NCBI GenBank assembly: GCA_029263375.1 | Contig: JAJCXP010000025.1 | Location: forward strand, 1-59,865 | Length of the DNA stretch: 59,865 nucleotides | Direction of reading: 5' to 3' | Source: Acidobacteriota bacterium | Lineage (GTDB): Bacteria; Acidobacteriota; Thermoanaerobaculia; Multivoradales; JAHEKO01 | In this document: positions 2-45,778 of the stretch, piece after piece | Numbering within the stretch: the stretch's first letter is position 1 | How the letters are laid out: every line of letters begins with the position of its first letter | Translations under genes and position numbers: made by a program | Notes under the pieces: generated by a model | The model's input: the letters and a program-made list of their open reading frames with translations, nothing else | Databases searched by the model: none | Told to the model about the DNA's origin: nothing

Positions 2-2905
2 ATGTTCATCCGCGCCAAGAAGCCGCCGCCGCCGGGAACGGTCCTCGAATTCTCGTTCCAGCTCGGCGACGACTTCAACCTGATCGCCGGCAAGGCGGAG
101 GTGGTCTGGAACCGATCGCTCGCCGACGGCCCCGAGCGGCCCTCCGGGATGGGAGTCAAGTTCCTCGAGCTCGACAAGGTCAGCCGCCGGGTGCTCGATC
201 AGATCCTCGAGAAGAGGCTCGGCCAGGACGACACCAGTGACGACCTTGCCGACGACTCCAAGGCCGCGGCGCGAATCACCAAGCTCGAGCAGGCGCGTGA
301 CGCGCTTCAGGGCGAGCTCGACAAGATCCGCACGCAGCTGCAGTCGAGCCTCGAGCACCGCGACGAAGTCCGACGACGGCTCGAGGAGCGTCTCGCCGAC
401 GTCGAGCACGAGCGCGACCGACGGCGCGACGAGCAACACTCGCTGCAGAAGCAGCTCGAGACCGCCCAGGCGGAGCTCGAGGCAACCTTGGCCGCGCGCG
501 GTACCGAGCAGGCCGAGGTCCAGGCCGCCCTGGCCCAGCTCGAGCTAGCCCGCGCGGAGCATCAGGCCGACGACGCCGAGCGCGAAAGCGCGCAGGCTTT
601 GATCGAAAACGAGCGCGAAAGCGCGCAGGCTTTGATCGAGAACGAGCGCGAACGCGCGCAGGCTCTGGTGGAGTCCGAGCGAGCAGCCGCCGAAGCCGGA
701 GCTGACGAGACCCGCCGGGAGCTCGAAGCTGCCCGGACAGCTGTCGACGAGCTCCGAACGGAGCTCGAGGACGCGCGTGGGCAACGAGTGGCCGCGGAGG
801 AGCGGCTCGCCTCGGCGGAGTCCGCGCACAGAGAGCTCGAGCAGCAGCTCGAGACAGCGCTGGCAGAACGCGAGTCGTTGCGTGAGCGCCACCGCGCAGC
901 CGCCGACCAGCAGGACGAGATCCGGCAGCAATACGAGAGCAGCCTGGCGCAACAGCAGAGCCTCCGCGAGCAGGTCGAGGTCGCCGAGGCCGAGTGCGAG
1001 GAGCTCCGCCAGGAGCGCAACAGCGCAGTAGCAGCTCGGCGAACGCTAGGCGAGCAGCTCGAAGCCGCCGAGGCCGCGCAGCTGGCGCTCCGAAACGAGC
1101 TCGAGGCCTCCCAGGCGGAGCGCGAAGGGATCGGCTCGGAGCTCGCGGCGGCACAGGCGGACAATGCGCGCTCGATCTCGGACTGCGAGGCCCAGGCGGA
1201 ACGCATCGCCGAGCTCGAGGCGACGATCTCCCAAGCCGAAGGCACCATCGAGTCGAGTCGCGGGGAGGCCGAGACGGCGCGCGCCGACGCCGAAGCAGCG
1301 ACCCGCGACGCTGAGCTGGAGCGCCGGCGGCTGGCGGAAGCCCAGGCCGCGATCGCCGAGCTCGAAGAACGGACCCGAGAGCTCGTCGGGCGTAGCCGCG
1401 AGCTCGAGGAAGAGCTCCACGCGGAGCGCGAGGGGCGCGCTGAGGCTTCGCGCCAGATCGATGACCTTCAGACGAGCGTGTCCGAGCTCCGGGACGGCTC
1501 CGAGGTTCGGCTCGTGGCGCTCCGCGAGCAGCTCGCCGAGTCGGAGGAGCGCTGCGAGCGACGCCAGCAGCGGCTGGAGGCCGCGAGCGAGCAGACGGCG
1601 GTTCTACGGGATGAGCTCACCCAGCGTCATGAAGCCGAGATTCGCGTCCTCGAGGAGCAGATCGAGCAGGTACAAGCAGACCACGAGGATCGCGTTCACC
1701 GGACTGAAGCAGAGCTCGAGACGGCCCGTGGTCTGGAAGGCGAGCTGCGCGTCGAGCTCGAGCAAGCGGCTCAACAGCGCACCGAGCTCGAGAGTCGACT
1801 CGAACAGCAGGCGGAGCGTGAGCAGGCGATCCACTCCGAGGCGCTCGAAGCCGAGCGCGCCCTCAGAGAAGAGGTCGATCGACTCGAGAGCCGCCTCGCG
1901 GAGGAGAGCGACGCCCAGATCCAACAGCTTTCCGAAGCCGGCGCCGAGGTCGAGCGGCGGCAGCAGGAGCTCGAGGCGACCCTCGGCGACCTGAAGGAGC
2001 TGCGCGAGGAGTCCGGGCGATCGCTCGAGGGTCTCGAGCGTGAGCTGAGCGAGACGCGAGCCTCCGAGAGCCAGCTCCGCGAACAGCTCGAGTCCATCAC
2101 TCGCAAGCTCGAGCGCGAGAGCGAGAGCCGTGCCGGCCTCGCTGCCGAGCTCGACGAAGCGGCCGCCGACGCCGAGAGGATCGCAGAGGAGAATCGCGAG
2201 CTCGCCTCGATCCCGCCGGCCACCGGCCAGGTCGAGCGGAGAACCGGCCTGCGGCGACCCAGCGCCCTGCGCGCGGCCGCCCTGGTCGGCTTCGGTCTGG
2301 TCCTCGGTTTCATGGCCTCCTACCCGTACGAGACCCTTCTGGTCTCGGCGGACCCGATCATGATTCGTCCCGCGACGTCATTCGCCGGCTCTGGGAGCAC
2401 TCAGCCAACGGTAGCTCCGACGGCCGACGCTTTGGCCGCACTCACGCCCGAGACAGAGGACGACGCCCTGCTCTCCGCGACGGCCGAGCTCGCCAACGAG
2501 CCCGCGGTAGAGCCAGTGCAACCAGCTCTTGAAGAAACGCCGGTGCGACCCGCTCCTGAACATGCGGTGGAGCGCTGGGCAGTCGCCTGGTCCGAACAGC
2601 GCGTCGCAGACTACCTGAGCTCGTACGCGAGCACCTTCCAAGTGCCCGACGATCTCGAGCGTGCCGTCTGGGAGCTGCAGCGCGCTCGCCGCATCCAGAG
2701 CCCCGAGTCGATCCGCCTGACCCTCGGCAAGATCGAGACCGTCACGAGCGGCCCCGACACAGCCACCGCCAGCTTCAACCAGTCCTACGTGGCCGGCGCC
2801 TACAGCGATCGGGTGCGCAAGACCCTGGAGTTGACCTGGGAGGGCGAAGCCTGGCGAATCGCCCGCGAGACCTCCGCCCCGCTCGGCGAGCCCGGCAACA
2901 ACTAG
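2..2905 (+). CDS. PilZ-like (TIGR02266-type) domain / very long coiled-coil / single TM / C-terminal NTF2-like domain protein; 5' end cut by window edge
   Basis: The ORF is open from the window edge. Its N-terminus (MFIRAKKPPPPGTVLEFSFQLGDDFNLIAGKAEVVWN...GMGVKFLELD) is a clear paralogue of the second domain of the 4900..5691 product. It is followed by ~650 aa of E/A/R/L/Q-rich coiled-coil-type sequence and a hydrophobic helix (AALVGFGLVLGFMASY). The C-terminal ~110 aa is globular; the NTF2-like call for it is inference. Confidence 0.8.
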   Translation: MFIRAKKPPPPGTVLEFSFQLGDDFNLIAGKAEVVWNRSLADGPERPSGMGVKFLELDKVSRRVLDQILEKRLGQDDTSDDLADDSKAAARITKLEQARDALQGELDKIRTQLQSSLEHRDEVRRRLEERLADVEHERDRRRDEQHSLQKQLETAQAELEATLAARGTEQAEVQAALAQLELARAEHQADDAERESAQALIENERESAQALIENERERAQALVESERAAAEAGADETRRELEAARTAVDELRTELEDARGQRVAAEERLASAESAHRELEQQLETALAERESLRERHRAAADQQDEIRQQYESSLAQQQSLREQVEVAEAECEELRQERNSAVAARRTLGEQLEAAEAAQLALRNELEASQAEREGIGSELAAAQADNARSISDCEAQAERIAELEATISQAEGTIESSRGEAETARADAEAATRDAELERRRLAEAQAAIAELEERTRELVGRSRELEEELHAEREGRAEASRQIDDLQTSVSELRDGSEVRLVALREQLAESEERCERRQQRLEAASEQTAVLRDELTQRHEAEIRVLEEQIEQVQADHEDRVHRTEAELETARGLEGELRVELEQAAQQRTELESRLEQQAEREQAIHSEALEAERALREEVDRLESRLAEESDAQIQQLSEAGAEVERRQQELEATLGDLKELREESGRSLEGLERELSETRASESQLREQLESITRKLERESESRAGLAAELDEAAADAERIAEENRELASIPPATGQVERRTGLRRPSALRAAALVGFGLVLGFMASYPYETLLVSADPIMIRPATSFAGSGSTQPTVAPTADALAALTPETEDDALLSATAELANEPAVEPVQPALEETPVRPAPEHAVERWAVAWSEQRVADYLSSYASTFQVPDDLERAVWELQRARRIQSPESIRLTLGKIETVTSGPDTATASFNQSYVAGAYSDRVRKTLELTWEGEAWRIARETSAPLGEPGNN
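578..676 (+). repeat. In-frame tandem repeat, 3 x 33 nt (11 aa: ERESAQALIEN, ERESAQALIEN, ERERAQALVES) inside the coiled-coil gene
   Basis: Read directly: gagcgcgaaagcgcgcaggctttgatcgaaaac is followed by a near-identical copy and then a diverged third copy. Confidence 0.85.
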
Positions 2906-35940: not shown

Positions 35941-37371
35941 GTGACGGGACGACCGACGACCTTCCCGCTCGAGCTGTCGCGCGCAGAGATGAAGCGACTC
36001 GTGGACGCGGCGATGGAGCGCATCTTCGAGCACATCGACTCGCTTCCCGATCAGCCGGCGGCGGACCTCGAGGGGGCGACCGCGCTCGCGCGCTCGGTCG
36101 CCGAGCCCGAGCCGCCCGAGAGCGGCGTACCGTTCGAGCAACTGCTCGACCTGATCTTCGACCGCCTGGCCGAGAAGAGCTTCAACACCATCGGTCCCGG
36201 ATTCGTCGCCTACATCCCCGGCGGCGGGCTCTTTCACGCCGCGGTCGCCGATCTGATCGCCGACTCCATCAACCGGTACATCACCGTTTTCGCGGCGGCC
36301 CCGGGTCTCGTGCAGCTCGAGATCAACGTCATCAACTGGCTCAAGCGGATGGTCGGCTTCCCCGCCGACGCCGGCGGCTTCCTGACCAGCGGCGGCTCGC
36401 TCGCCAACTTCAGCGCTCTGGCGACAGCCCGGCGCGAGAAGCTGCCCGAGAACTTCCTGGACGGCGTCCTCTACGTCTCCGACCAGATCCACCATTCGAT
36501 CGACAAGGCCGCGGCGCTGGCCGGCTTCCCGGCGCGCGCCGTCCGGCAGATCGGCGTCGACGAGCGGTTCCGGATTCGAATCGACGAGCTCGAGCAGGCG
36601 ATCGCGACCGACCTCGAACGCGGACTGAGACCGTTTCTGATCGTCGGCAGCGCGGGCACCACCAACACGGGCGCGGTCGACGACCTGCCGGAGCTCTCTC
36701 GAGTCGCGCGTGAGCACTCGCTCTGGCTCCACGTCGACGGCGCCTACGGCGGCTTCTTCGCGCTCACGGAGCGCGGTCGGACCGCGCTCCGTGGACTCTC
36801 GGAAGCCGACTCGGTCACCCTCGACCCGCACAAGGGGCTGTTTCTGCCCTACGGCACCGGCGGCCTGCTGGTGCGTGACGGCGAAGCCCTCAAACGGGCG
36901 CACCAGCTGCGCGGCGAGTACATGCTGCCGCCCGAGGAGTCTCCCGACCTGGTGGACTTCTGCGACATCTCGCCCGAGCTGTCGCGCGACTTCCGCGGCC
37001 TGCGCGTCTGGCTGCCGATCAAGATGCATGGGCTCGCCGCGTTCCGTGAGGCGCTGGACGAGAAGCTCGACCTGGCGCACTGGGCAACCGACGAGCTGCG
37101 ACAGATTCCGGGCATCGAAATCGTCGCTGAGCCCCAGCTGTCGTTGCTCGCGTTCCGCCTGGCGCCCGACGGCTACGATCCGGAGCGACTCGACGAGCTG
37201 AACCGCGAGTTGATGGACCGCATCAACGCGCGCCAGCGCGTCTTCCTGACCGGCACCCGGCTCGACCTGGGGTTCGTGTTGCGGATCTGCATTCTGAGCT
37301 TCCGCACCCACCGCGACCGGATGGAGATGGGGCTCGAGGACATTCGGGCGGCGGTCGGCGAGCTCCGCTAG
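35941..37371 (+). CDS. Pyridoxal-dependent (group II) amino-acid decarboxylase
   Basis: TSGGSLANFSAL, HVDGAYGG and the PLP-lysine motif DPHKGLFLPYG are present. GTG 35941 (or TTG 35932) is the likely start, because earlier track codons overlap the divergent dioxygenase gene. Confidence 0.85.
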   Translation: MTGRPTTFPLELSRAEMKRLVDAAMERIFEHIDSLPDQPAADLEGATALARSVAEPEPPESGVPFEQLLDLIFDRLAEKSFNTIGPGFVAYIPGGGLFHAAVADLIADSINRYITVFAAAPGLVQLEINVINWLKRMVGFPADAGGFLTSGGSLANFSALATARREKLPENFLDGVLYVSDQIHHSIDKAAALAGFPARAVRQIGVDERFRIRIDELEQAIATDLERGLRPFLIVGSAGTTNTGAVDDLPELSRVAREHSLWLHVDGAYGGFFALTERGRTALRGLSEADSVTLDPHKGLFLPYGTGGLLVRDGEALKRAHQLRGEYMLPPEESPDLVDFCDISPELSRDFRGLRVWLPIKMHGLAAFREALDEKLDLAHWATDELRQIPGIEIVAEPQLSLLAFRLAPDGYDPERLDELNRELMDRINARQRVFLTGTRLDLGFVLRICILSFRTHRDRMEMGLEDIRAAVGELR

Positions 37372-37559
37372 GGGGACCGAGCACTAGCAGGAGACTCGCG
37401 GTACAACCGGGTCCCTCTGCTCTGAGCCGCAGACGTCCCACGAGGCGGCCGCGCGTATACTTGTGTGGAAGCACGATCAACAGCAAGTTCGAACGCAGCT
37501 GCGGCCGGGAGACCGGCGGTGGACCAAAACTCGCATCGGCGCCCGTCTAACCAAGGAAG

Positions 37560-38291
37560 ATGATCGATATCCTGCCTCATCTGCCAGTCGTCATTCTCGC
37601 GCTCGGGGTGCTGGTCATCGGCGGCCTCGCGCTCCGTTCGTCACGTGGACCCAAGCCGGTAGTCTTTCTGAGCTCGACGAGCGAGTTCGAGACGATCAGC
37701 CCCAAGCTTGTGACGTGGATCAGGGAACTGGGTGACTACGATCCCTGGTGGTATAAGCAGAACGATGCCACCGAGGAGATCATCGAAAAGACGATCTCGC
37801 TCAGTCGCTTCTTCGTTCTACTTCTTGGACACACGTTCGGCGCCAACTGGAGGAAGAGCGATCGCTCGATTGTTCAGCGCGAGTTCGAGCTGGCACTAGA
37901 GAACATTCCGATCCACGCCGTGCGCGCCTTTGTTAGGAATCCACCTGCCGGACCAATCGACCCGAGGCAGCAGCGCTTCATCAAGTCGATTCGGGACTAC
38001 GGCACCAAGATAAGAAGCAGGGAGTGGAGCTCCGACGAGAAGCTCTACAAGCGAGTCGTCGAGGCGCTTTCACGTGCGCAGGAGACCTACCAGAAACTGC
38101 ACGTAGAACGCGCCCGCCGGCTCAACCGGTTCATCTTCCTGCCTATGCTCGTTGTCACCGGTGCTCTTTCCGCCGGCAGCTATTACGGCGTGGGGGGCAC
38201 CTTCGCGAGCCAACCGATTACGTTCGGCGTATTCGGCGTCGTCGCTCTCGCAACAGCCGGTTTCAACATCTTCCATAGCCAGGAGCACTAG
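37560..38291 (+). CDS. Membrane-anchored DUF4062-like (TIR/deoxyribosyltransferase-like fold) protein
   Basis: An N-terminal TM (LPVVILALGVLVIGGLAL) is followed by VVFLSSTSEF...FFVLLLGHTFGAN...SIVQREFELA. That segment matches my recollection of the DUF4062 pattern (vFiSST...D.yv.iiG.rYG...S.Te.Ey..A). Two C-terminal TM helices close the protein. AAGGAAG SD. G+C is visibly lower than in the flanks. Confidence 0.6.
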   Translation: MIDILPHLPVVILALGVLVIGGLALRSSRGPKPVVFLSSTSEFETISPKLVTWIRELGDYDPWWYKQNDATEEIIEKTISLSRFFVLLLGHTFGANWRKSDRSIVQREFELALENIPIHAVRAFVRNPPAGPIDPRQQRFIKSIRDYGTKIRSREWSSDEKLYKRVVEALSRAQETYQKLHVERARRLNRFIFLPMLVVTGALSAGSYYGVGGTFASQPITFGVFGVVALATAGFNIFHSQEH

Positions 38292-38293
38292 CG

Positions 38294-39244
38294 ATGGCCG
38301 ACACGTCTGAGATCTCGAAAGCCGCAGCTGCCGAAGAGGACGAGACTCGACGGCGCTTCGAGCAGCTGGAGCGCCGTCAAGCCCGTCAGCGGCGGCTCCG
38401 CCTGCTCCTATGGCTCTTGCCGCTCGCGCTGGCTCTGCTCCTTCTGCTGCTCGCCGAGAACGAGGCCACTCTGGTCGAGGAGGGAGTCCAGGCAGCAGCT
38501 CCGTTCAAGAACCTACAACGAGAGGTCGGGGACACGAAGACGGACTTGACCACTCTCGGCTTGGCCCTGGGAAGCCTCGAACGACTGCCTCCGGCGGGCA
38601 CGATTGGAGAAACCCCAACCGCCGGTCGAGCGCCCGCCTCGGTCGTAGACGTCCTCGACTTCCACGCCAAGAGACTCGAACAGCTGGAATCGGAGCAGCA
38701 GCCTGCCGCTCCTGAGTCTGAACCGACACCAGCACCAGGGCCAGCTCACCCACCCTTCGAAGACGCGGCGGAGACGCATCAGCAGCTCGCGAGCGACATC
38801 GCGGCCAGCGGCGAGAGGCTCGAGGAGATGGCGCGCGAGCTCGCGACTCTGAGCTCCGCGGCCGATCTTACGAACCGACTGCAGGGGAGCCTCGACGCCG
38901 CCAACGAGAGCCTCTCGGAGATCCACCTACGCATCGAGCGATTGGAGCGGGAGGGCTCATACAGATCCTTGACTGTGCGTGAGAAAGAGGTCGCGGCGGT
39001 CTTGACACTTGGACTCAGAATCGCTCCGGGAACGGTCGATCGTCACGGCGTCCTACCGCAGTTCTCGATCACGACGCGCGGCGGTGAGGCGGTCTCGACA
39101 CTTCAGCCGAGCGTGGAGCTCAACAAGGAAAACTCGTTCAGGCTCGACGACTGCTCCTACACCTTCGAGGTGACACGTCACAAGAAGTCATGGTTCTTCG
39201 ACGACTACCTCGATATCGAGCTCGTGCGCTCGTGCGGATCCTGA
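38294..39244 (+). CDS. Membrane-anchored coiled-coil protein with small C-terminal beta-rich domain (hypothetical)
   Basis: It starts 2 nt after the previous stop. A basic N-terminus is followed by a TM (LLLWLLPLALALLLLLLA). Coiled-coil-like segments, a P/E-rich linker and a C-terminal ~90-aa globular part follow. I recognise no family. Confidence 0.55.
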   Translation: MADTSEISKAAAAEEDETRRRFEQLERRQARQRRLRLLLWLLPLALALLLLLLAENEATLVEEGVQAAAPFKNLQREVGDTKTDLTTLGLALGSLERLPPAGTIGETPTAGRAPASVVDVLDFHAKRLEQLESEQQPAAPESEPTPAPGPAHPPFEDAAETHQQLASDIAASGERLEEMARELATLSSAADLTNRLQGSLDAANESLSEIHLRIERLEREGSYRSLTVREKEVAAVLTLGLRIAPGTVDRHGVLPQFSITTRGGEAVSTLQPSVELNKENSFRLDDCSYTFEVTRHKKSWFFDDYLDIELVRSCGS

Positions 39245-39257
39245 GCGGCCTAGATGA

Positions 39258-40685
39258 TCAAGGGCGGGTCCGAAGTCCCGCCAGGCGTTCGCGGTAGCGC
39301 TCGACGGCCACGCGGACCCCTTCGAGGTCTTCGGAGAGCAGCTCGCCGCCCTCGACCAGCACCCGACCATCCACGATCACGGTCTCGACGTCCGCGGATT
39401 TGGTCGAATAGACCAACGTCGAATAGGGATCGTAGATCGGCTGCTGGTGCAGGCCGCGCGGATCGACGACGATCAGGTCCGCCCGCTTGCCGACCTCGAG
39501 CGAACCGATATCCGCTTCCATTCCCAGGGCGCGCGCGCCACCGATGGTGGCCATCGTCAGCGCCTCCTCGGCGCTCACGACGGTCGGATCGGACTTGATC
39601 ACTTTGTGCAGCTTGGCGGCGGTGTCGATCTCCTCCCAGAGGTCGAGATCGTTGTTCGAAGCCGGACCGTCCGTCCCCAGCCCCACGGCGATCCCCGCCG
39701 CGAGCATCTCGGGCACCGGGGCGACGCCCGCCGCGACCTTCATGTTCGACTGCGGACAGTGCGCCACGCCCACGCCGCGCTCGGCGAGCAGCTCGATCTC
39801 GCTCGGGCTCGGCCAGACGACGTGATTGGCGATCATCCGGTCGTCGAGAATCCCGAGATGATCGACGTATTCGACCGGGCGCATCCCGGTGCGCTCGAGG
39901 ATCTCGTCGACCTCGGACATGTCCTCGGCCAGATGCAGGATCAGCGGTACGTCGTGGCGGACGGCCAGCTCGTGCGCCGCCTGCAGGTGCTCCGCCGAGA
40001 CCGTGTAGGGCGCGTGCGGCGCCACCGCGGGGGTGATCCGGTCGTGGCCCTTCCAGCGCACCAGGAAGCGCTCGGTGTAGGCGATCGCGTCTTCCCAGCT
40101 CTTGTTGTCGGGCGCCGGGAAGTCGATCAGCGACTCTCCGACCACCGCTCGGGCGCCGCAGCGCTCGGCCTCCTCGGCGATCACGTCCTCGAAGTAGTAC
40201 ATGTCGACGAAGGTGGTCGTGCCGCCACGCAGCATCTCCAAGCAGCCGAGCCGCGTGCCCCAACGCACGAACTCCTCGTCGACGTACTCGGCTTCGGCCG
40301 GGAAGATCACGTCCTCGAGCCACTCCTTGAGCGGCAGATCGTCCGCCAATCCCCGGAACAGGGCCATCGGCACGTGGGTGTGGGTGTTGATCAATCCGGG
40401 CAGGACGATGCGTCCGTCGGCGGAGCGCACCTCCGCACCGGGGAAGCGCTCACCCAGATCAGCGGCGGTGCCCACCGCTTCGATCCGGCTGCCGCGGATG
40501 GCCACGGCGCCCGCCTCGATGACGGAGCCCTGACCGTCCATGGTGACTACCGTGCCGCCGCTCAGAAGCCAGACCCCGTCCGGCTGAGTCTCCCGGTCCG
40601 CGGCGGCGGGCGCCGACCCCTCGCCGCAGGACAAGACGAGGATCGCGCACGAGGCGACGACTGGCAGGAGTGTTGCGAACCGCAT
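39258..40685 (-). CDS. Lipoprotein amidohydrolase of the MtaD/ATZ-TRZ (chlorohydrolase/deaminase) family
   Basis: The start is at ATG 40685 (MRFATLLPVVASCAILVLSCG, with a lipobox). PGLINTHTHVPM, HLAE, HCPQSNMK and GLGTDG are typical of this deaminase family. Confidence 0.85.
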   Translation of the reverse strand: MRFATLLPVVASCAILVLSCGEGSAPAAADRETQPDGVWLLSGGTVVTMDGQGSVIEAGAVAIRGSRIEAVGTAADLGERFPGAEVRSADGRIVLPGLINTHTHVPMALFRGLADDLPLKEWLEDVIFPAEAEYVDEEFVRWGTRLGCLEMLRGGTTTFVDMYYFEDVIAEEAERCGARAVVGESLIDFPAPDNKSWEDAIAYTERFLVRWKGHDRITPAVAPHAPYTVSAEHLQAAHELAVRHDVPLILHLAEDMSEVDEILERTGMRPVEYVDHLGILDDRMIANHVVWPSPSEIELLAERGVGVAHCPQSNMKVAAGVAPVPEMLAAGIAVGLGTDGPASNNDLDLWEEIDTAAKLHKVIKSDPTVVSAEEALTMATIGGARALGMEADIGSLEVGKRADLIVVDPRGLHQQPIYDPYSTLVYSTKSADVETVIVDGRVLVEGGELLSEDLEGVRVAVERYRERLAGLRTRP

Positions 40686-40779
40686 CGGGGCACCCGGTGA
40701 GGCCGCAAAGCGTACCAGGATTCTTTGACCGCCGAGGCGACCTGGACTACCCTGACGATCCAACTTCGAGGAGGGATCC

Positions 40780-41403
40780 ATGTCCAATCGCCGAACCGTC
40801 GCCGCACTCGCTCTTTCCGGAATGGCCGTCTTGGCCGCACTCGCCGGCGCCCAACCCGCCGCTCCAGCCGATCAGATTCACGCCGCGGTGAGCCCCGCGC
40901 CCGAGGCGCTGCGAGCGACCGCGACCGTTCTGGGCTACGACCCGGAGGGCAAGATGATCGAGTTGCGCGCCGGCACCGGCGAGCTGGTCTGCCTCGCCGA
41001 CGATCCAGCGGACGAGCGCTTCCACGTCGCCTGCTACCACCGCTCGCTGGCGCCGTTCATGACGCGCGGGCGAGAGCTCCGCGCCGAGGGGCTGGAGCGG
41101 GCCGACGTGGTCAGCACTCGTGGCGAGGAGATCGCCGCCGGCAAGCTCAGCTTCCCTTCCGCCCCGGCGACGCTCTACTCGCTCACCGGCCCGGCCGGCA
41201 GCTTCGACGCCGAGGCGCAGGTCGTGCGCGGCGGCAATCGTGTCTATTCGGTCTATGTCTCCTACGCGAACGCTGAGACCACCGGCCTGCCGACCCAGCC
41301 GATCAGCGAGGGAGGGCCGTGGCTGATGAACGCCGGCGAGCCGTGGGCGCACATCATGATGGTCCAGCCCTCCGACCCGCCGGCGGCGGACAGCGGCGAC
41401 TGA
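40780..41403 (+). CDS. Secreted hypothetical protein
   Basis: It has a GGAGGG SD and a signal peptide (ALALSGMAVLAALAGA). I recognise no family. Confidence 0.55.
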   Translation: MSNRRTVAALALSGMAVLAALAGAQPAAPADQIHAAVSPAPEALRATATVLGYDPEGKMIELRAGTGELVCLADDPADERFHVACYHRSLAPFMTRGRELRAEGLERADVVSTRGEEIAAGKLSFPSAPATLYSLTGPAGSFDAEAQVVRGGNRVYSVYVSYANAETTGLPTQPISEGGPWLMNAGEPWAHIMMVQPSDPPAADSGD

Positions 41404-41421: not shown

Positions 41422-43629
41422 TCAGGAGGCGGCGCTGCGCTGCCACTCGGCGGGCCACTGGCCGTCGACCAGCCACTGTTCGGCGGCTGCCGCCGGCACC
41501 GGACGGGAGAAGTAGAACCCCTGCACCGCGTCGCAGCGCATTCCCTGCATGATCTCCAGGGTCTCCTGGTCCTCGATGCCCTCGGCGATCGTCTGGATGC
41601 GCAGAGCGCTGGCCATGTCGATGATCGCACGCACGATCTCGACGTCGCGGCCGCTCTGACCCAGGTGACTGATGAACGAGCGGTCGATCTTGAGGGTGTG
41701 GATCGGCAGCTGATGGAGATAGCTCAAGGATGAGTAGCCGGTACCGAAGTCGTCCAGTAGCACCCAGACACCACGGTCGTTGAGCTCGGTGAGCTTCTTG
41801 CTCGCCGCCGACAGGTCACGCAGAATCATGCCCTCGGTGATCTCGAGACGCAGCGCTCCGTCGGGCAGGCCCGACTCGTCCAGGAGCCCGCCCAGATACT
41901 CATAGAAGGTCGGCTGCTCGAGATCGGAGGCCGTGGCGTTGAAGCTCAGATAGAACGGGTCGTCCGGGAACCGTCGGCGCCATTCCACCGCCTGATCCGC
42001 CGTGCGTCGCATGACCCACCGGTTGATGTCCCACATCAGCCCGAGATCCTCGGCCAACGGCAGAAACCTCCCCGGGGCGAGCGTTCCCTCGAGCGGGTGG
42101 TTCCAGCGAATCAGGACCTCCATGCCTCGCAGCTCACCGCCGGCGGTCGCCACGATCGGCTGATAGTGGAGCTCGAACTCCTCACGCTCGATCGCGCGCC
42201 GCAGATCGGTTTCGAGCTGGACCACGGAGGCGACCTCGTCGCCCTTCTCGGGCTCGAAATGGACGGTGCAGCCGGGGCGGGTCGCCTTCGCCTGGTACAT
42301 GGCCAGCTCCGCGTGGCGGAACACCTCACGGGCCCCCTCGTAGCCGGACTTCGCCAGCGAGATGCCGATACTGGCGGTGAGATAGACCTCCTTGTCGGCG
42401 GAGCTGAACGGCGTGGCCATCACCTCCAGAATCCGTTTCGCGCTGGCGTCCGCGGCCGCTTCGCTGTCGATGCCGTAGAGCAGCAGCCCAAACTTGTCGC
42501 CCCCGACCCGCGCCAGCGTATCGCCCGGGCGCACCGCGCTGTCCAGCCGCCGAGCAACCTCGGTCAACAGGGCGTCGCCGCGCTTCTCGCCCAGTGTCTC
42601 GTTGACTGAGCTGAAGCGATCGAGGCCCAGGATCAGAACGCAGAACTCAGAATCCTCCGCGGTCCTGACACGACCGAGTGCCCGTTCGATTCGGTGCACG
42701 AACTCCTTCTGATTCGGGAGCTCCGTCAACCGATCGTGGATCGCATTGAAGCTCGCCTGCTCGACCAGCCGCTGACGAAGCTCGGTCTCCTCGAGAACCC
42801 GCACACCGGCGGCGGCGAGCTCCTCATCGCGCACGCGCAGCTGGGCCGACATGTTCTCCCACCTGCGGGTCAGCTCGAAGGCTACGCCGGCAGCCACCAG
42901 CGCCAGGACGAGGGCGAGCGCGAGTCTTGTCGTTCTCGGATGCGGGGCCGGCATGCGCCGGCGGTCGGAGACCGCCAGCGTCCAGGAGCCGTCGTCCGAG
43001 GACACGGGCAGCTCGAAACCGCTGGAGCCGACCGGCTCGGACCAGCGGTGAACGAGGGTCCTCTCGCTGGACGCGAGATCGTCTATCCAGACCTCGTGCC
43101 CAAAGCCGCGCCGCGCCAGGTCAGCGACCCCCGAAACATCGATCAAAGCGCTCGCATCCACCGCGGCCGCTACCCTCGCACCGGTGTCACCGATCGGTCC
43201 GGTCAGCACGAAGACCATCGCTCGGTTGTCGGCCGAGTAGAGCACCCCGCTGCGCGGGCCGAGTGCGGGCGCCAGGGTCTCGAAGCCCCAGGGAGCGCCC
43301 AGCGCGAGGTGCGGGCACGAGTCCAGCAGTGTGCCCCGGGAATCGATGACCGCGCCGTGCACGGTCAACAGGTCGCGCTCCTCGGTCTCCGGCCACGATC
43401 GCTTGCCGACGATTCCGGGATCCGAATGTGAGGCCGCCCATCCTTCCGCGCGCGCTCTCAACAGGTCCAGCTGCCGCGCCAGGACCCGGGTCGCATCGAG
43501 GCCCGTCTCGACCGCCTCGGCCAGCTCCTGGGCACGCTCGCGATGCGACGCCGCGCGCGCGAACAGCATCGCCACCGACAGCGTCACGAGGAAGGCGATC
43601 AGCGCGGCAGCCAATCCGAGACGGTTCAT
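41422..43629 (-). CDS. Membrane sensor protein with degenerate GGDEF (GGDKF, intact RxxD I-site) and EAL (EVL) domains
   Basis: The start is at ATG 43629 (MNRLGLAAALIAFLVTLSVAML). An extracytoplasmic region and a second TM follow. The GGDEF domain reads RPGDTLARVGGDKFGLLL and the EAL domain reads FELHYQPIV...MEVLIRWNHP...DDFGTGYSSL. Confidence 0.85.
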   Translation of the reverse strand: MNRLGLAAALIAFLVTLSVAMLFARAASHRERAQELAEAVETGLDATRVLARQLDLLRARAEGWAASHSDPGIVGKRSWPETEERDLLTVHGAVIDSRGTLLDSCPHLALGAPWGFETLAPALGPRSGVLYSADNRAMVFVLTGPIGDTGARVAAAVDASALIDVSGVADLARRGFGHEVWIDDLASSERTLVHRWSEPVGSSGFELPVSSDDGSWTLAVSDRRRMPAPHPRTTRLALALVLALVAAGVAFELTRRWENMSAQLRVRDEELAAAGVRVLEETELRQRLVEQASFNAIHDRLTELPNQKEFVHRIERALGRVRTAEDSEFCVLILGLDRFSSVNETLGEKRGDALLTEVARRLDSAVRPGDTLARVGGDKFGLLLYGIDSEAAADASAKRILEVMATPFSSADKEVYLTASIGISLAKSGYEGAREVFRHAELAMYQAKATRPGCTVHFEPEKGDEVASVVQLETDLRRAIEREEFELHYQPIVATAGGELRGMEVLIRWNHPLEGTLAPGRFLPLAEDLGLMWDINRWVMRRTADQAVEWRRRFPDDPFYLSFNATASDLEQPTFYEYLGGLLDESGLPDGALRLEITEGMILRDLSAASKKLTELNDRGVWVLLDDFGTGYSSLSYLHQLPIHTLKIDRSFISHLGQSGRDVEIVRAIIDMASALRIQTIAEGIEDQETLEIMQGMRCDAVQGFYFSRPVPAAAAEQWLVDGQWPAEWQRSAAS

Positions 43630-44444
43630 CACGGCGCGCCCTTCTTCGGGCCGCGCAACGGTCGCTGCCAGGTCACGACCAGGGCGCGCCTGCGGATCGC
43701 CCCCTGCTCCGCCTGGCTCAGATAGAGCACCATGCGGTGGCGCTCGAAGATCGGCATCGAAAGGCCGGCGTAGACCTCCGAGTAGTCGGCCTCGGGCTCG
43801 AGACCGGCCACCACATTGGTGAGATCCGGAGTGCTGACACCGGTCGCGCCGCCGAAGAAGTAGTCGAGCGCCCGATCCACGTCGACCCGGATGGCGGCAA
43901 TCCGGCTGTCCCAGTTGCCGGAGACCGACTCCAGATAGCTGAGTCGGATCGCGAGCGGGCGGGAGAACCGATAGCTGACGCCGGCCTCCAGCAGCACGCT
44001 TTCGAATCGATCGATGTCGTACGCCTGCACCTCGCCGAAGAGCGCCAGGCGCCCACCGAGCTCGACGCGGGTGAGACGAGAGCGCACCTTGCGGTAGTCG
44101 AACGACCGCCCGGCCTGCTCGCCTGCTCCGATCTCGACCGACGCCTGGCCGAAGAGATCGTCGGCCAAGGCCCCCCCCAAGCCACCCCTGACGTAGGTCC
44201 ACTCGGAGCTGCCGATCGAGTTGGTCGAGGCACCGAGCGTCACGACCTCCTTTGGACTGCGTCGAACCCAGTCGAAGTCGGTTCCCCAGAGCTCCTCGCC
44301 GGCAACATTCTCGAGCCGAAGCGTCATCACCATCGACTGAGGGGCGTCGGTCGCTGGCGTTGTCTCTGCGCCCGCGTCAGCAAAACCGACGGCCGCAACG
44401 GCGCCCGCGCAGAGGATGGCAGTGACACGGCGAGCCGCGCTCAT
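43629..44444 (-). CDS. Outer-membrane beta-barrel protein (YaiO-like)
   Basis: It has a signal peptide (ILCAGAVAAVGFADA) and alternating hydrophobic beta-strand patterns throughout. The YaiO-family resemblance is from recollection only. Its stop overlaps the GGDEF/EAL start (TGATG). Confidence 0.5.
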   Translation of the reverse strand: MSAARRVTAILCAGAVAAVGFADAGAETTPATDAPQSMVMTLRLENVAGEELWGTDFDWVRRSPKEVVTLGASTNSIGSSEWTYVRGGLGGALADDLFGQASVEIGAGEQAGRSFDYRKVRSRLTRVELGGRLALFGEVQAYDIDRFESVLLEAGVSYRFSRPLAIRLSYLESVSGNWDSRIAAIRVDVDRALDYFFGGATGVSTPDLTNVVAGLEPEADYSEVYAGLSMPIFERHRMVLYLSQAEQGAIRRRALVVTWQRPLRGPKKGAP

Positions 44445-45778
44445 CGCTCCGCCTCGGCCAGGGTAATGATCGTCAGCTCGTCGCTCTCACCGGTGATTCC
44501 GGCCGCGGTGAGCTCAGCCGACCACTCCCGCTCGCCCAGGGTCACGCGGCGACGGCTTCGAACCTGAACTCCGAGCTGCCACCAGCCACCGGGCGCGCTC
44601 GAGCTCTCGAGAACCTCCGCGGCCGCGGCGCCGAAACAGAGGTCCGGGAACAGCTCCGCCGCGCGGGCGTTGAAATAGAGCAGCCGCTGGTCTGATCCAA
44701 CCAGCAGGTACGACATCGGAGCGGCATCGAGCGCGCTCTTCAAGTAGTGCAGGTCGCTGACGTCGTGGAGCGTCACGTAGAGATAGTCGGTTCCCCGGTT
44801 GCGCAGCGGGAAGCAGTGCACCCGCGCCACCCGGGTCTCGGGCCCGACCCGGTAGACCGCGAACGGCACCTCGCCCGAGCCGTCGGCGAGCAGGCGCTCG
44901 ATCACGTCCTGGTAGGTGAACCGCACGATCTCGAGAAAGCTCTTCGCGCCCAGGTCGTCCGGCTCGATCAACAGGCCGTCCATGAAGCCGTCGCTCGCTT
45001 GAGCGATCACCAGACTGTCGCGAAATATGAGAGCCGCCGGCTCGGGTGAGGCGCGCAGAACCGCCCCCGACAACCGCTCCTCCTCCTCGAGGGCGTGGCT
45101 CGACAGGGTGAGCCGCTCGTAGAGCTTGAGCAGCAGCGAGGAGATCGATTCGCTGGTCAGCGCCACCGTCACCAGCAGTAGCGAGAAGAAGACCAGAGAG
45201 ACCATCAGATACCCGGGCTGCGCAGCGACCGACGGGAACGGATCCTGTCTGCCCGCGAGCTCGGACGGCGCCAGACTCAACAGCGGGCCCAGCGCCTCAT
45301 AGCGGCTCAGGTACCAGCGCAGACCCGGCGAATCGACGATGGCGACGAAGCCGGTCGCCGCGATCGCCAGCAGGGCGACGCCGTAAGCGTGCCAGCGCAG
45401 GGTCAGCAGACCGGCGGCGACCACGGGCAGGACGAAGGCCAGCAGAAAGAGTGGGTTCTGCACGCTGCCGACCAGATGCCAGACCCAGGCGAGGAAGATC
45501 ACCCCGACCATCTGCACCGCGACCATGACGGCCAGAACAAATCGCTGAGAGCGGATCCGATCGGTGAGATATGCGGTCCCGAGGTAGGCCACCGAATAGC
45601 CGAACAGGCTCCAGGCGACCACCCCCATATCGATGTCCAGCACACGCAGATACCAGGGGGTCCCGGTAGAGAGCAGGACCGCGATCAGGACCAGCAACCA
45701 GGAGGCGTCGAGCGCCCGCTTGCGCTCGTAGAGCGCCGGCAGACGATCGGACAGCAGCTGACCGCCGAGCTCGCTCAT
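44441..45778 (-). CDS. Polytopic membrane protein with C-terminal PAS-like cytoplasmic region and no recognisable output domain
   Basis: It has ~6 TM helices in the first 215 aa and then ~230 aa of soluble sequence. ATGA overlaps occur at both ends. Confidence 0.55.
   Translation of the reverse strand: MSELGGQLLSDRLPALYERKRALDASWLLVLIAVLLSTGTPWYLRVLDIDMGVVAWSLFGYSVAYLGTAYLTDRIRSQRFVLAVMVAVQMVGVIFLAWVWHLVGSVQNPLFLLAFVLPVVAAGLLTLRWHAYGVALLAIAATGFVAIVDSPGLRWYLSRYEALGPLLSLAPSELAGRQDPFPSVAAQPGYLMVSLVFFSLLLVTVALTSESISSLLLKLYERLTLSSHALEEEERLSGAVLRASPEPAALIFRDSLVIAQASDGFMDGLLIEPDDLGAKSFLEIVRFTYQDVIERLLADGSGEVPFAVYRVGPETRVARVHCFPLRNRGTDYLYVTLHDVSDLHYLKSALDAAPMSYLLVGSDQRLLYFNARAAELFPDLCFGAAAAEVLESSSAPGGWWQLGVQVRSRRRVTLGEREWSAELTAAGITGESDELTIITLAEAER

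Follow-up and report, generated by a model that had tools for sequence, protein, structure and literature searches.

A membrane-embedded DUF4062 gene pair in an Acidobacteriota genome, probably related to the Swarozyc and Evangelion abortive-infection NADases

DUF4062 was recognised in 2026 as a TIR-like NAD+ hydrolase (NADase) domain that acts in bacterial anti-phage defence and is also present in the human vault protein TEP1. NAD+ depletion and abortive infection have been shown for the bacterial proteins KpSwz (Swarozyc) and Eva01 (Evangelion), both of which need a catalytic glutamate and a fused, variable C-terminal region called AUX (10.64898/2026.05.01.722283; 10.64898/2026.06.25.731849). 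The AUX region of KpSwz senses the phage portal protein (Osinski et al., 10.64898/2026.05.01.722283; PDB 10wc, 11cq and 11cv) and that of Eva01 senses replication-associated processes (Ibarra-Chavez et al., 10.64898/2026.06.25.731849), and in KpSwz a helical stalk that follows the core mediates an autoinhibited dimer (10.64898/2026.05.01.722283). The characterised bacterial DUF4062 proteins are all soluble, act as single proteins and sense intracellular phage components. Here we analyse positions 37372-39257 of a 59,865-nucleotide (nt) stretch of an Acidobacteriota genome (contig JAJCXP010000025.1; the whole stretch is called the window below), where an initial annotation, made from the letters alone, had proposed a low-G+C island of two genes that encode a membrane-embedded DUF4062 protein and a membrane coiled-coil partner. 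The best reading of this pair is that it is an undescribed two-gene membrane version of the single-gene, soluble Swarozyc and Evangelion NADases, and the module is probably a membrane-embedded relative of these abortive-infection enzymes. The initial annotation knew of no described system with a membrane-embedded DUF4062 protein and a second gene, and this still holds; the Swarozyc and Evangelion preprints do not mention membrane or transmembrane (TM) forms, and a third DUF4062 preprint (10.64898/2026.09.04.749371) may mention a two-gene form. The enzymology of a DUF4062 domain is now expected, so the new element here would be an integral-membrane TIR-like NADase with an obligate periplasm-facing partner.

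Gene 1 (37560-38291, + strand) encodes a 243-residue protein with three predicted TM helices and a DUF4062 domain placed in the cytoplasm, and gene 2 (38294-39244, + strand) encodes a 316-residue bitopic partner. The stop codon of gene 1 (TAG, 38289-38291) and the ATG of gene 2 (38294) have 2 nt between them, and the 3' end of gene 1 contains an AGGAG (38281-38285, + strand) that would serve gene 2 as ribosome-binding site. A pyridoxal phosphate (PLP)-dependent decarboxylase gene on the + strand ends upstream at 37371, and an amidohydrolase gene on the - strand (39258-40787) converges on the pair from downstream; the tight packing of the two genes between these neighbours had been recognised at the outset, and its coordinates are borne out. 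The two genes are translationally coupled and make the island a self-contained module. The same locus, with its flanks, is present in a second public assembly of the same organism and is therefore not an assembly artefact, and in the called frames of both genes G+C content is highest at third, intermediate at first and lowest at second codon positions (GC3>GC1>GC2), a pattern that supports real coding sequence.

Gene 1 is a member of the DUF4062 family by profile match, fold and catalytic residue. Pfam PF13271 (DUF4062) matches residues 35-112 over profile positions 2-82 of 82, with 28.1 bits against a gathering score of 24.7 (E 2.4e-6), and precomputed annotations place PF13271 on all listed relatives (see below). 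The motifs VVFLSSTSEF, FFVLLLGHTFGAN and SIVQREFELA, from which the initial annotation had assigned the family, are present in the protein. A profile built from the family matches the KpSwz sequence (PDB 10wc) at E 1.1e-11 over chain residues 4-154 of 326, which together with the Pfam match bears out that assignment. The AlphaFold model, made with a 28-sequence alignment, has a mean predicted local distance difference test score (pLDDT) of 89.2 and a predicted template modelling score (pTM) of 0.79, and consists of a helix at residues 5-29, a beta/alpha core at 33-158, a helix at 159-208 and a helix at 218-242. The core is the TIR-like DUF4062 catalytic domain (37656-38033, + strand), in which five parallel strands (34-39, 61-64, 84-89, 121-126 and 153-156) alternate with helices in a block of pLDDT 89-97, mostly 94-97. 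Foldseek matches to the model include plant and bacterial TIR domains and the nucleoside deoxyribosyltransferase (NDT)-like protein DNPH1/Rcl, with TIR-STING (9lmq) at E 1.9e-5 and SARM1, the RPS4/RRS1 TIR domains and DNPH1 at E 1e-3 to 1e-2, and so the anticipated TIR or nucleoside-deoxyribosyltransferase-like fold is recovered by both structure prediction and structure comparison.

Nine columns are invariant in the 28-sequence alignment (F36, S38, T40, S41, G90, G94, S103, E108 and Q137), and one of them, E108 (codon GAG, 37881-37883, + strand), is the predicted catalytic glutamate. In the alignment with KpSwz it falls on chain residue 84, which is the alanine of the deposited E97A mutant; the offset of 13 between chain and native numbering was confirmed via R18 and D71, both named in the KpSwz preprint, which makes E108 the equivalent of the residue that is catalytic in KpSwz. 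Hydrolysis of NAD+ that yields ADP-ribose and nicotinamide has been shown only for KpSwz and TEP1, and by analogy with them the gene 1 protein would be expected to carry out the same reaction.

The topology suggested for gene 1 by the initial annotation, with one N-terminal and two C-terminal TM helices, is upheld by hydropathy and by the AlphaFold model. TM1 (residues 7-25; 37578-37634, + strand; hydropathy 2.43) lies within the modelled helix 5-29 and is predicted to be a signal-anchor with the N-terminus outside. After the catalytic domain a long helix (residues 159-208; 38034-38183, + strand) would form a cytoplasmic stalk that runs into TM2, placed by hydropathy at about residues 190-208, and TM3 (residues 218-242; 38211-38285, + strand; hydropathy 1.89), which is also a modelled helix, closes a C-terminal membrane hairpin. 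Positive charges in RSSRGPK after TM1 and ERARRLNR before TM2 lie on the presumed cytoplasmic side, and hydropathy together with the positive-inside rule thus predicts that the DUF4062 domain faces the cytoplasm. The C-terminal hairpin is found throughout the family. TM1 is conserved as a hydrophobic segment in the closest relative, P0003, and is absent from the other approximately 40 family members, so that the N-terminal TM helix is specific to the subfamily formed by the window protein and P0003.

Comparison with the described systems shows both the likeness and the departure. Gene 1 has the same catalytic domain family as Swarozyc and the same glutamate position (E108 in the window, E97 in KpSwz), and a helical stalk follows the TIR-like core in both. 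KpSwz, however, is a soluble, single-gene protein with a C-terminal helix-turn-helix (HTH)/winged-helix AUX region that binds the phage portal, whereas gene 1 has no AUX region, has three TM helices and has an obligate downstream membrane partner; the profile match ends at KpSwz chain residue 154, beyond which gene 1 continues with its stalk and TM hairpin. The likeness of gene 1 to Evangelion lies in the N-terminal aromatic residue of the DUF4062 core (F36 in the window, F11 in Eva01), in a catalytic glutamate followed by an aromatic residue (E108-F109 and E87-Y88, respectively), and in the need of the core for a second, variable, co-evolving module. Evangelion proteins (Eva01-04) are single-gene, soluble and enriched on plasmids and other mobile elements; in the window pair, by contrast, there are two genes, TM helices take the place of AUX, a second membrane protein carries the variable module, and searches of plasmids and phages gave no relatives. 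The canonical TIR NADases (SARM1, TIR-STING and plant TIRs) and DNPH1/Rcl share the fold of gene 1, but at only 10-18% identity, and canonical TIR_2 (PF13676), tried as a candidate family, stayed below threshold (17.2 bits against a cut-off of 28); gene 1 belongs to the DUF4062 branch of the superfamily.

Membrane-embedded phage-defence modules are known in type II Thoeris (TM-Macro ThsA with the TIR protein ThsB), Zorya (ZorAB) and Kiwa (KwaAB), and in Zorya and Kiwa the complex is thought to sense envelope events. The likeness of the window pair to these is one of concept only, a membrane-resident defence component. No Ths, Zor or Kwa match was returned by PADLOC for the window proteins or for the family members and partners tested, and the pair, which has no ThsA/ThsB match, has a decarboxylase and an amidohydrolase gene as neighbours. 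In the window, unlike in those systems, the TIR-like enzyme itself is predicted to be an integral membrane protein, and the bulk of its partner would be periplasmic and not cytoplasmic.

Gene 2 matched no Pfam, NCBIfam, PADLOC or PHROG family; coiled-coil families of Pfam appeared at sub-threshold level only, and NCBIfam and PHROGs gave only noise with both proteins of the pair, as they did with typical members of the family and their partners. Its predicted parts are a cytoplasmic N-terminal tail, acidic and then with an Arg-rich juxtamembrane motif (residues 1-34; 38294-38395, + strand; an AlphaFold helix with pLDDT >90), a single TM helix (residues 35-53; 38396-38452, + strand; hydropathy 2.62), an extracytoplasmic region of helices and coiled coil (residues 54-222; 38453-38959, + strand) that includes a Pro-rich linker and has AlphaFold helices of low confidence at 117-134, 156-184 and 189-219, and a beta-rich C-terminal domain of about 95 residues (223-316; 38960-39241, + strand) with six strands, also predicted at low confidence. 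The basic tail, single TM helix, coiled coils and beta-rich C-terminus that had been read from the translation thus hold, though past the TM helix the model, predicted from the single sequence, is of poor quality (pLDDT 53).

Relatives of gene 2 make its parts easier to judge. Immediately downstream of P0003, in the locus that we call L001, lies a partner gene whose product has 37% identity to the gene 2 protein over its full length (E 9e-46). A motif of the type E-x-x-RRRR precedes the TM helix in all partners, and hhalign joins the window/L001 pair of partners to the 14 others with 92% probability (E 6e-7) through the TM helix and the juxtamembrane region. Tail and TM helix are the most conserved part of the partner, and the periplasmic part varies in length among relatives; in the 14 remaining partners the ectodomain resembles a coiled coil and differs in length, and the beta domain is mostly missing. 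The C-terminal domain is near-collinear in five long partners, with a few indels of 1-2 residues, and the long partners of more distant enzymes (L005, L020, L024 and L026) align over it with hardly a gap. Eight of its columns are invariant (R224, L239, G246, G264, T294, D304, Y305 and E309). BLAST links the partners in a chain from L001 to L020 (3.6e-4), from L020 to L005 (1.5e-17) and from L005 to L002 (2e-42), and this chain and the collinear alignment are the grounds for regarding the C-terminal domains as homologous; a hidden Markov model (HMM) built from the C-termini of three distant partners ranked gene 2 first of 500 open reading frames (ORFs) in the window, with a weak E value of 0.13. 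Gene 2 has only two cysteines, C287 (39152-39154) and C314 (39233-39235). The pair is retained in the L001 and L020 partners and missing from those of L005 and L024, and its conservation in the former two is consistent with a C287-C314 disulfide in an extracytoplasmic domain.

In word-indexed searches for homologues, each of the two proteins found nothing beyond the window's own sequences, and a search of this kind with the family profile did not return P0003. An exhaustive HMMER search recovered 46 relatives of gene 1 (as clusters) among 1.84 billion representatives; P0003 is 47% identical to gene 1 with the same length and architecture, and approximately 40 relatives are proteins of 220-230 residues in which an N-terminal DUF4062 domain is followed by a helical stretch and then by two hydrophobic helices at the C-terminus. 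From contig look-ups and by scanning GTDB species genomes, 20 distinct full-length loci besides the window were obtained, and in 20/20 of them a partner gene lies directly downstream of the enzyme gene on the same strand, so that the co-occurrence proposed for the pair is seen at every full-length locus. The gap between the genes ranges from -17 to +42 nt, L001 having the same 2-nt spacing as the window, and two of the partners lie within longer alternative-frame ORFs of high-G+C DNA. In L026 (1958-2949) the partner is split into a 51-residue piece (tail and TM helix) and a 247-residue remainder, by a frameshift or a sequencing error. The similarity matrices of enzymes and partners are strongly correlated (Mantel r 0.866, p<=0.0002, 17 loci), and the partner is always more diverged than the enzyme (e.g., 46% against 76%). 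The window thus has both the adjacency and the partner homology of a two-gene family, made up of a DUF4062-TM enzyme and a bitopic partner, which we propose here, and a co-evolving two-gene form would widen what is known of the regulation of DUF4062 enzymes.

The family occurs mostly in Acidobacteriota metagenome-assembled genomes (MAGs), from Holophagales, Thermoanaerobaculia, Vicinamibacteraceae, Acidobacteriaceae and Pyrinomonadaceae, and outside this phylum there is one gammaproteobacterial and one Desulfobacteraceae example. Scans of metagenomes for the window/L001 subfamily, made once with its two enzymes and once with its two partners, found nothing, and the subfamily therefore has two known members. 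One Vicinamibacteraceae MAG carries a second version of its locus on another contig (L021:7836-8459, compared with L014:2156-3561), in which the DUF4062 gene is identical as far as '...KEPLTNIEPG', after which the sequence continues with the 3' end of the partner gene. Some 1.1 kb is lost, so that the enzyme gene lacks its 3' half and the partner gene its 5' part, and the flanks, which include a trypsin-like-TIR fusion gene, are unchanged. This deletion allele may reflect loss of the module at strain level, or it may be a variant produced in assembly.

The compositional difference on which the initial annotation remarked is substantial. Its spot counts of G+C (31/60 and 35/60 in the island, 41/60 in the flank) were exact, and by windowed G+C, GC3 and codon adaptation alike the pair is the lowest in the window. 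G+C content is 0.618 in the island (37372-39257) and averages 0.672 over the window (sd 0.017 for stretches of 1885 nt). The island is in effect the G+C minimum of the 59,865 nt, with only 0.07% of such stretches as low. Gene 1 (0.585) and gene 2 (0.637) compare with 0.675+-0.020 in 29 reference genes, GC3 is 0.75 in both against 0.866+-0.033 (z about -3.5), and an index resembling the codon adaptation index (CAI) is 0.51 and 0.52 against 0.695+-0.055; for GC3 and for this index the pair has the lowest values among 31 genes. The L001 pair has the composition of its own host and lies in a context entirely unlike that of the window, so the low G+C of the window pair is not intrinsic to these genes, which favours a relatively recent arrival in this genome; on these sequence grounds the module looks like a fairly recent acquisition. 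In L010, L013, L016, L020 and L022 the pair, especially the partner gene, also has a GC3 below that of its neighbours (0.36 against about 0.55 in the flanks in L010, and 0.53 against about 0.70 in L016), and in L015, L018, L019 and L023 it equals the flanks. Since pair GC3 is lower in some genomes and flank-like in others, repeated acquisitions of different ages are suggested.

The metagenomic loci that carry relatives are rich in conflict-type genes, including TIR_2 proteins, TPR-S/Patatin proteins, a trypsin-TIR fusion and soluble DUF4062 proteins. TPR-S and Patatin domains, fused or in adjacent genes, lie near the pair in three unrelated metagenomic loci (L001:8429-11062, L005:3122-5689 and L024:1467-4494), and in L001 the TPR-S/Patatin gene is immediately downstream of the pair; the fused proteins of L001 and L005 have no PADLOC match. 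The neighbouring TIR_2 proteins have weak ThsB-like and SAVED-TIR PADLOC matches. In L005 (10666-11541, - strand) and L024 (9294-10175, - strand), 3-4 kb from the pair and beside TPR-S/Patatin and TIR_2 genes, there are soluble DUF4062 proteins of 291-293 residues that have a helical C-terminal region and no TM helix, an architecture like that of Swarozyc and Evangelion. A census of 90 neighbours contains TPR-S three times, Trypsin_2 three times, nSTAND1, MAP3K_TRAF_bd and PLDc_2, along with many metabolic genes. Proximity to defence genes, which had been raised as a check on the island, is thus seen beside some relatives in the form of TIR and patatin genes; in the window the neighbours are metabolic, and PADLOC has no match for the pair. 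We also note that L002 (6001-9062) contains a tight run of four genes, encoding a DUF4062-2TM protein, a 197-residue partner that has no beta domain, a 348-residue four-TM protein and a 241-residue TIR_2 protein, with gaps of 12, 6 and 5 nt, and this arrangement suggests that larger operon variants of the module exist.

A mechanism consistent with these features can be outlined. The gene 1 protein would be a TIR-like NAD+ glycohydrolase whose cytoplasmic domain is tethered to the inner membrane at both ends; the Arg-rich tail and TM helix of the partner would dock on the membrane helices of the enzyme, and the partner's variable coiled coil and C-terminal beta domain would project into the periplasm. 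Because a hairpin takes the place of AUX, a partner is co-encoded throughout and conservation within it falls on the tail and TM helix, the partner would most economically be the equivalent of AUX supplied in trans, providing sensing or regulation and holding the enzyme inactive within the membrane. Phage adsorption, DNA ejection or envelope damage, received by the fast-evolving periplasmic part, would be the trigger, and the signal would be relayed through the TM bundle so that the TIR-like domains are released or oligomerise, hydrolyse NAD+ and bring about cell arrest.

How much of this is likely to be right differs from part to part. Whether the two genes form a membrane-bound DUF4062 NADase module with a role in conflict or defence seems to us an evenly balanced question; if they do, the module would be a candidate for defence in which infection is sensed at the envelope, ahead of phage gene expression. 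The narrower idea of outside-in sensing, in which the periplasmic coiled coil and a disulfide-bonded beta domain detect infection and switch on the cytoplasmic NADase, is tentative and on balance doubtful. Should it be right, gene 1 would encode the first enzyme of the TIR superfamily under control from the periplasm, and the sensor module would have separated from the DUF4062 core to reside on a fast-evolving membrane protein of its own. The immune repertoire of Acidobacteriota and of related bacteria in soil and sediment is little explored; the two-gene module would add to it, and current defence-finding tools miss the module, since it has no PADLOC match.

A number of observations weigh against the defence reading. 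With gene 1 alone as query, nothing significant was found among PDB sequences and KpSwz was not detected; the window subfamily lacks some motifs of the family, with a 4-residue deletion in the 'SPE' region and R152 aligned with the family tryptophan, and the model of gene 2 is poor, as noted above. The flanks and the remaining ORFs of the window are metabolic, housekeeping, transport or c-di-GMP-signalling genes, and homologues of the TPR-S/patatin or TIR neighbours of the relatives are found nowhere in it. Among 30 window ORFs, the only PADLOC matches at E<=1e-8 are to ankyrin and to the candidate family PDC-M72A (E 7e-24), and no defence family is among the Pfam families listed for these ORFs; nor did PADLOC match either protein of the pair or typical family members and partners. 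A tblastn search of 72,556 plasmids and 50,697 phage records gave no match and there are no relatives on viral contigs, so an origin on a mobile element is unsupported. The case for horizontal acquisition, which the initial annotation had drawn from composition, accordingly stands in part: codon usage and base composition deviate, and the context of the closest relative differs, but the window has no tRNA gene, repeats flanking the island are at chance level with no target-site repeat, no integrase or transposase family is among the Pfam families listed for the 30 further ORFs, and a native GGDEF-EAL gene (GC3 0.78) approaches the codon values of the pair.

Many of these points suit a non-immune housekeeping or signalling module of Acidobacteriota-type bacteria, in which a periplasmic coiled-coil protein controls a membrane-tethered TIR-like enzyme that tunes NAD+ or a nucleotide-derived signal to the state of the envelope, such as cell-wall stress or a growth transition. 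The pair adjoins leuS in L013, L018 and L019, selA in L015 and, in one genome locus, a gene for a PpiD-like chaperone, and neighbour domains recur between loci (Peptidase_M19 three times, Aminotran_4 three times); the housekeeping neighbours and recurring domains suggest vertical inheritance rather than a mobile defence island. The metabolic neighbours in the window, the lack of plasmid, phage and viral copies and the lack of a PADLOC match point the same way, and DUF4062 may do more than hydrolyse NAD+ (Osinski et al., 10.64898/2026.05.01.722283). We nevertheless consider this explanation unlikely. The family is rare and patchy (the 46 clusters above), the pair is compositionally foreign in this genome while its closest relative lies in a different context, it recurs beside TIR, patatin and soluble DUF4062 genes, a deletion allele exists and the partner evolves fast, all of which is what would be expected of conflict genes and not of core physiology. 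If the pair is not a defence system, it would be a membrane-coupled NAD+-consuming signalling device in these phyla.

The killing activity might instead be membrane disruption, with the hairpin and the partner TM helix forming a pore or lesion when they oligomerise and the DUF4062 domain serving mainly as a nucleotide-binding or oligomerisation switch. TM effectors are known in CBASS, Pycsar and type II Thoeris and offer a comparison. In gene 1 the two-helix hairpin is fused to a stalk whose counterpart in KpSwz mediates dimer or oligomer contacts, and in L002 the four-TM and TIR_2 proteins are encoded in the same run, where the TIR protein could produce a signal. The catalytic glutamate and the other active-site columns are, however, invariant in 28/28 aligned members, which argues for retained enzymology, and no gene for a signal-producing enzyme adjoins the pair in the window, so we regard membrane disruption as quite unlikely.

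The tight, translationally coupled operon and the strict co-inheritance of its genes are also what a toxin-antitoxin-like addiction pair would show, gene 1 being a constitutively toxic membrane NADase and gene 2 a plain stoichiometric inhibitor with no sensing in the periplasm, and the deletion allele removes parts of both genes together. Such a pair is very unlikely here: the enzyme gene comes first and that for the putative inhibitor second, the partner does not look small or labile, and an inhibitor would have no need of a long, variable, disulfide-bearing ectodomain of 150-280 residues. Finally, low codon adaptation and word-indexed searches in which the window's own proteins were the only matches might suggest chance ORFs or a functionless remnant in decay, but this reading is effectively refuted by the coding-type GC3, the full-length homologues of both genes (47% and 37% identity), the 46-member family with invariant active-site residues and the confident structure prediction. 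The membrane two-gene NADase module remains the reading that we prefer.

Regarding expression, the 188-nt intergenic region between the decarboxylase stop and the gene 1 ATG (37372-37559, + strand) is presumed to hold the operon promoter; a scan found no sigma-70 consensus and no terminator, and Rfam gave no match.

Two further features of the window deserve mention. One ORF has topoisomerase VI subunit A/Spo11 domains (TOP6A Toprim, E 3.8e-59), which are uncommon in bacteria. The window also has c-di-GMP-signalling content, at 2-2905 (+ strand), 41422-44202 (- strand) and 44441-45778 (- strand); two of its proteins have PilZ domains, the product of the ORF at 2-2905 has a Cds6-like NTF2 domain as well, and the membrane GGDEF-EAL protein, which a PAS protein adjoins, has the lowest codon adaptation of the native genes.

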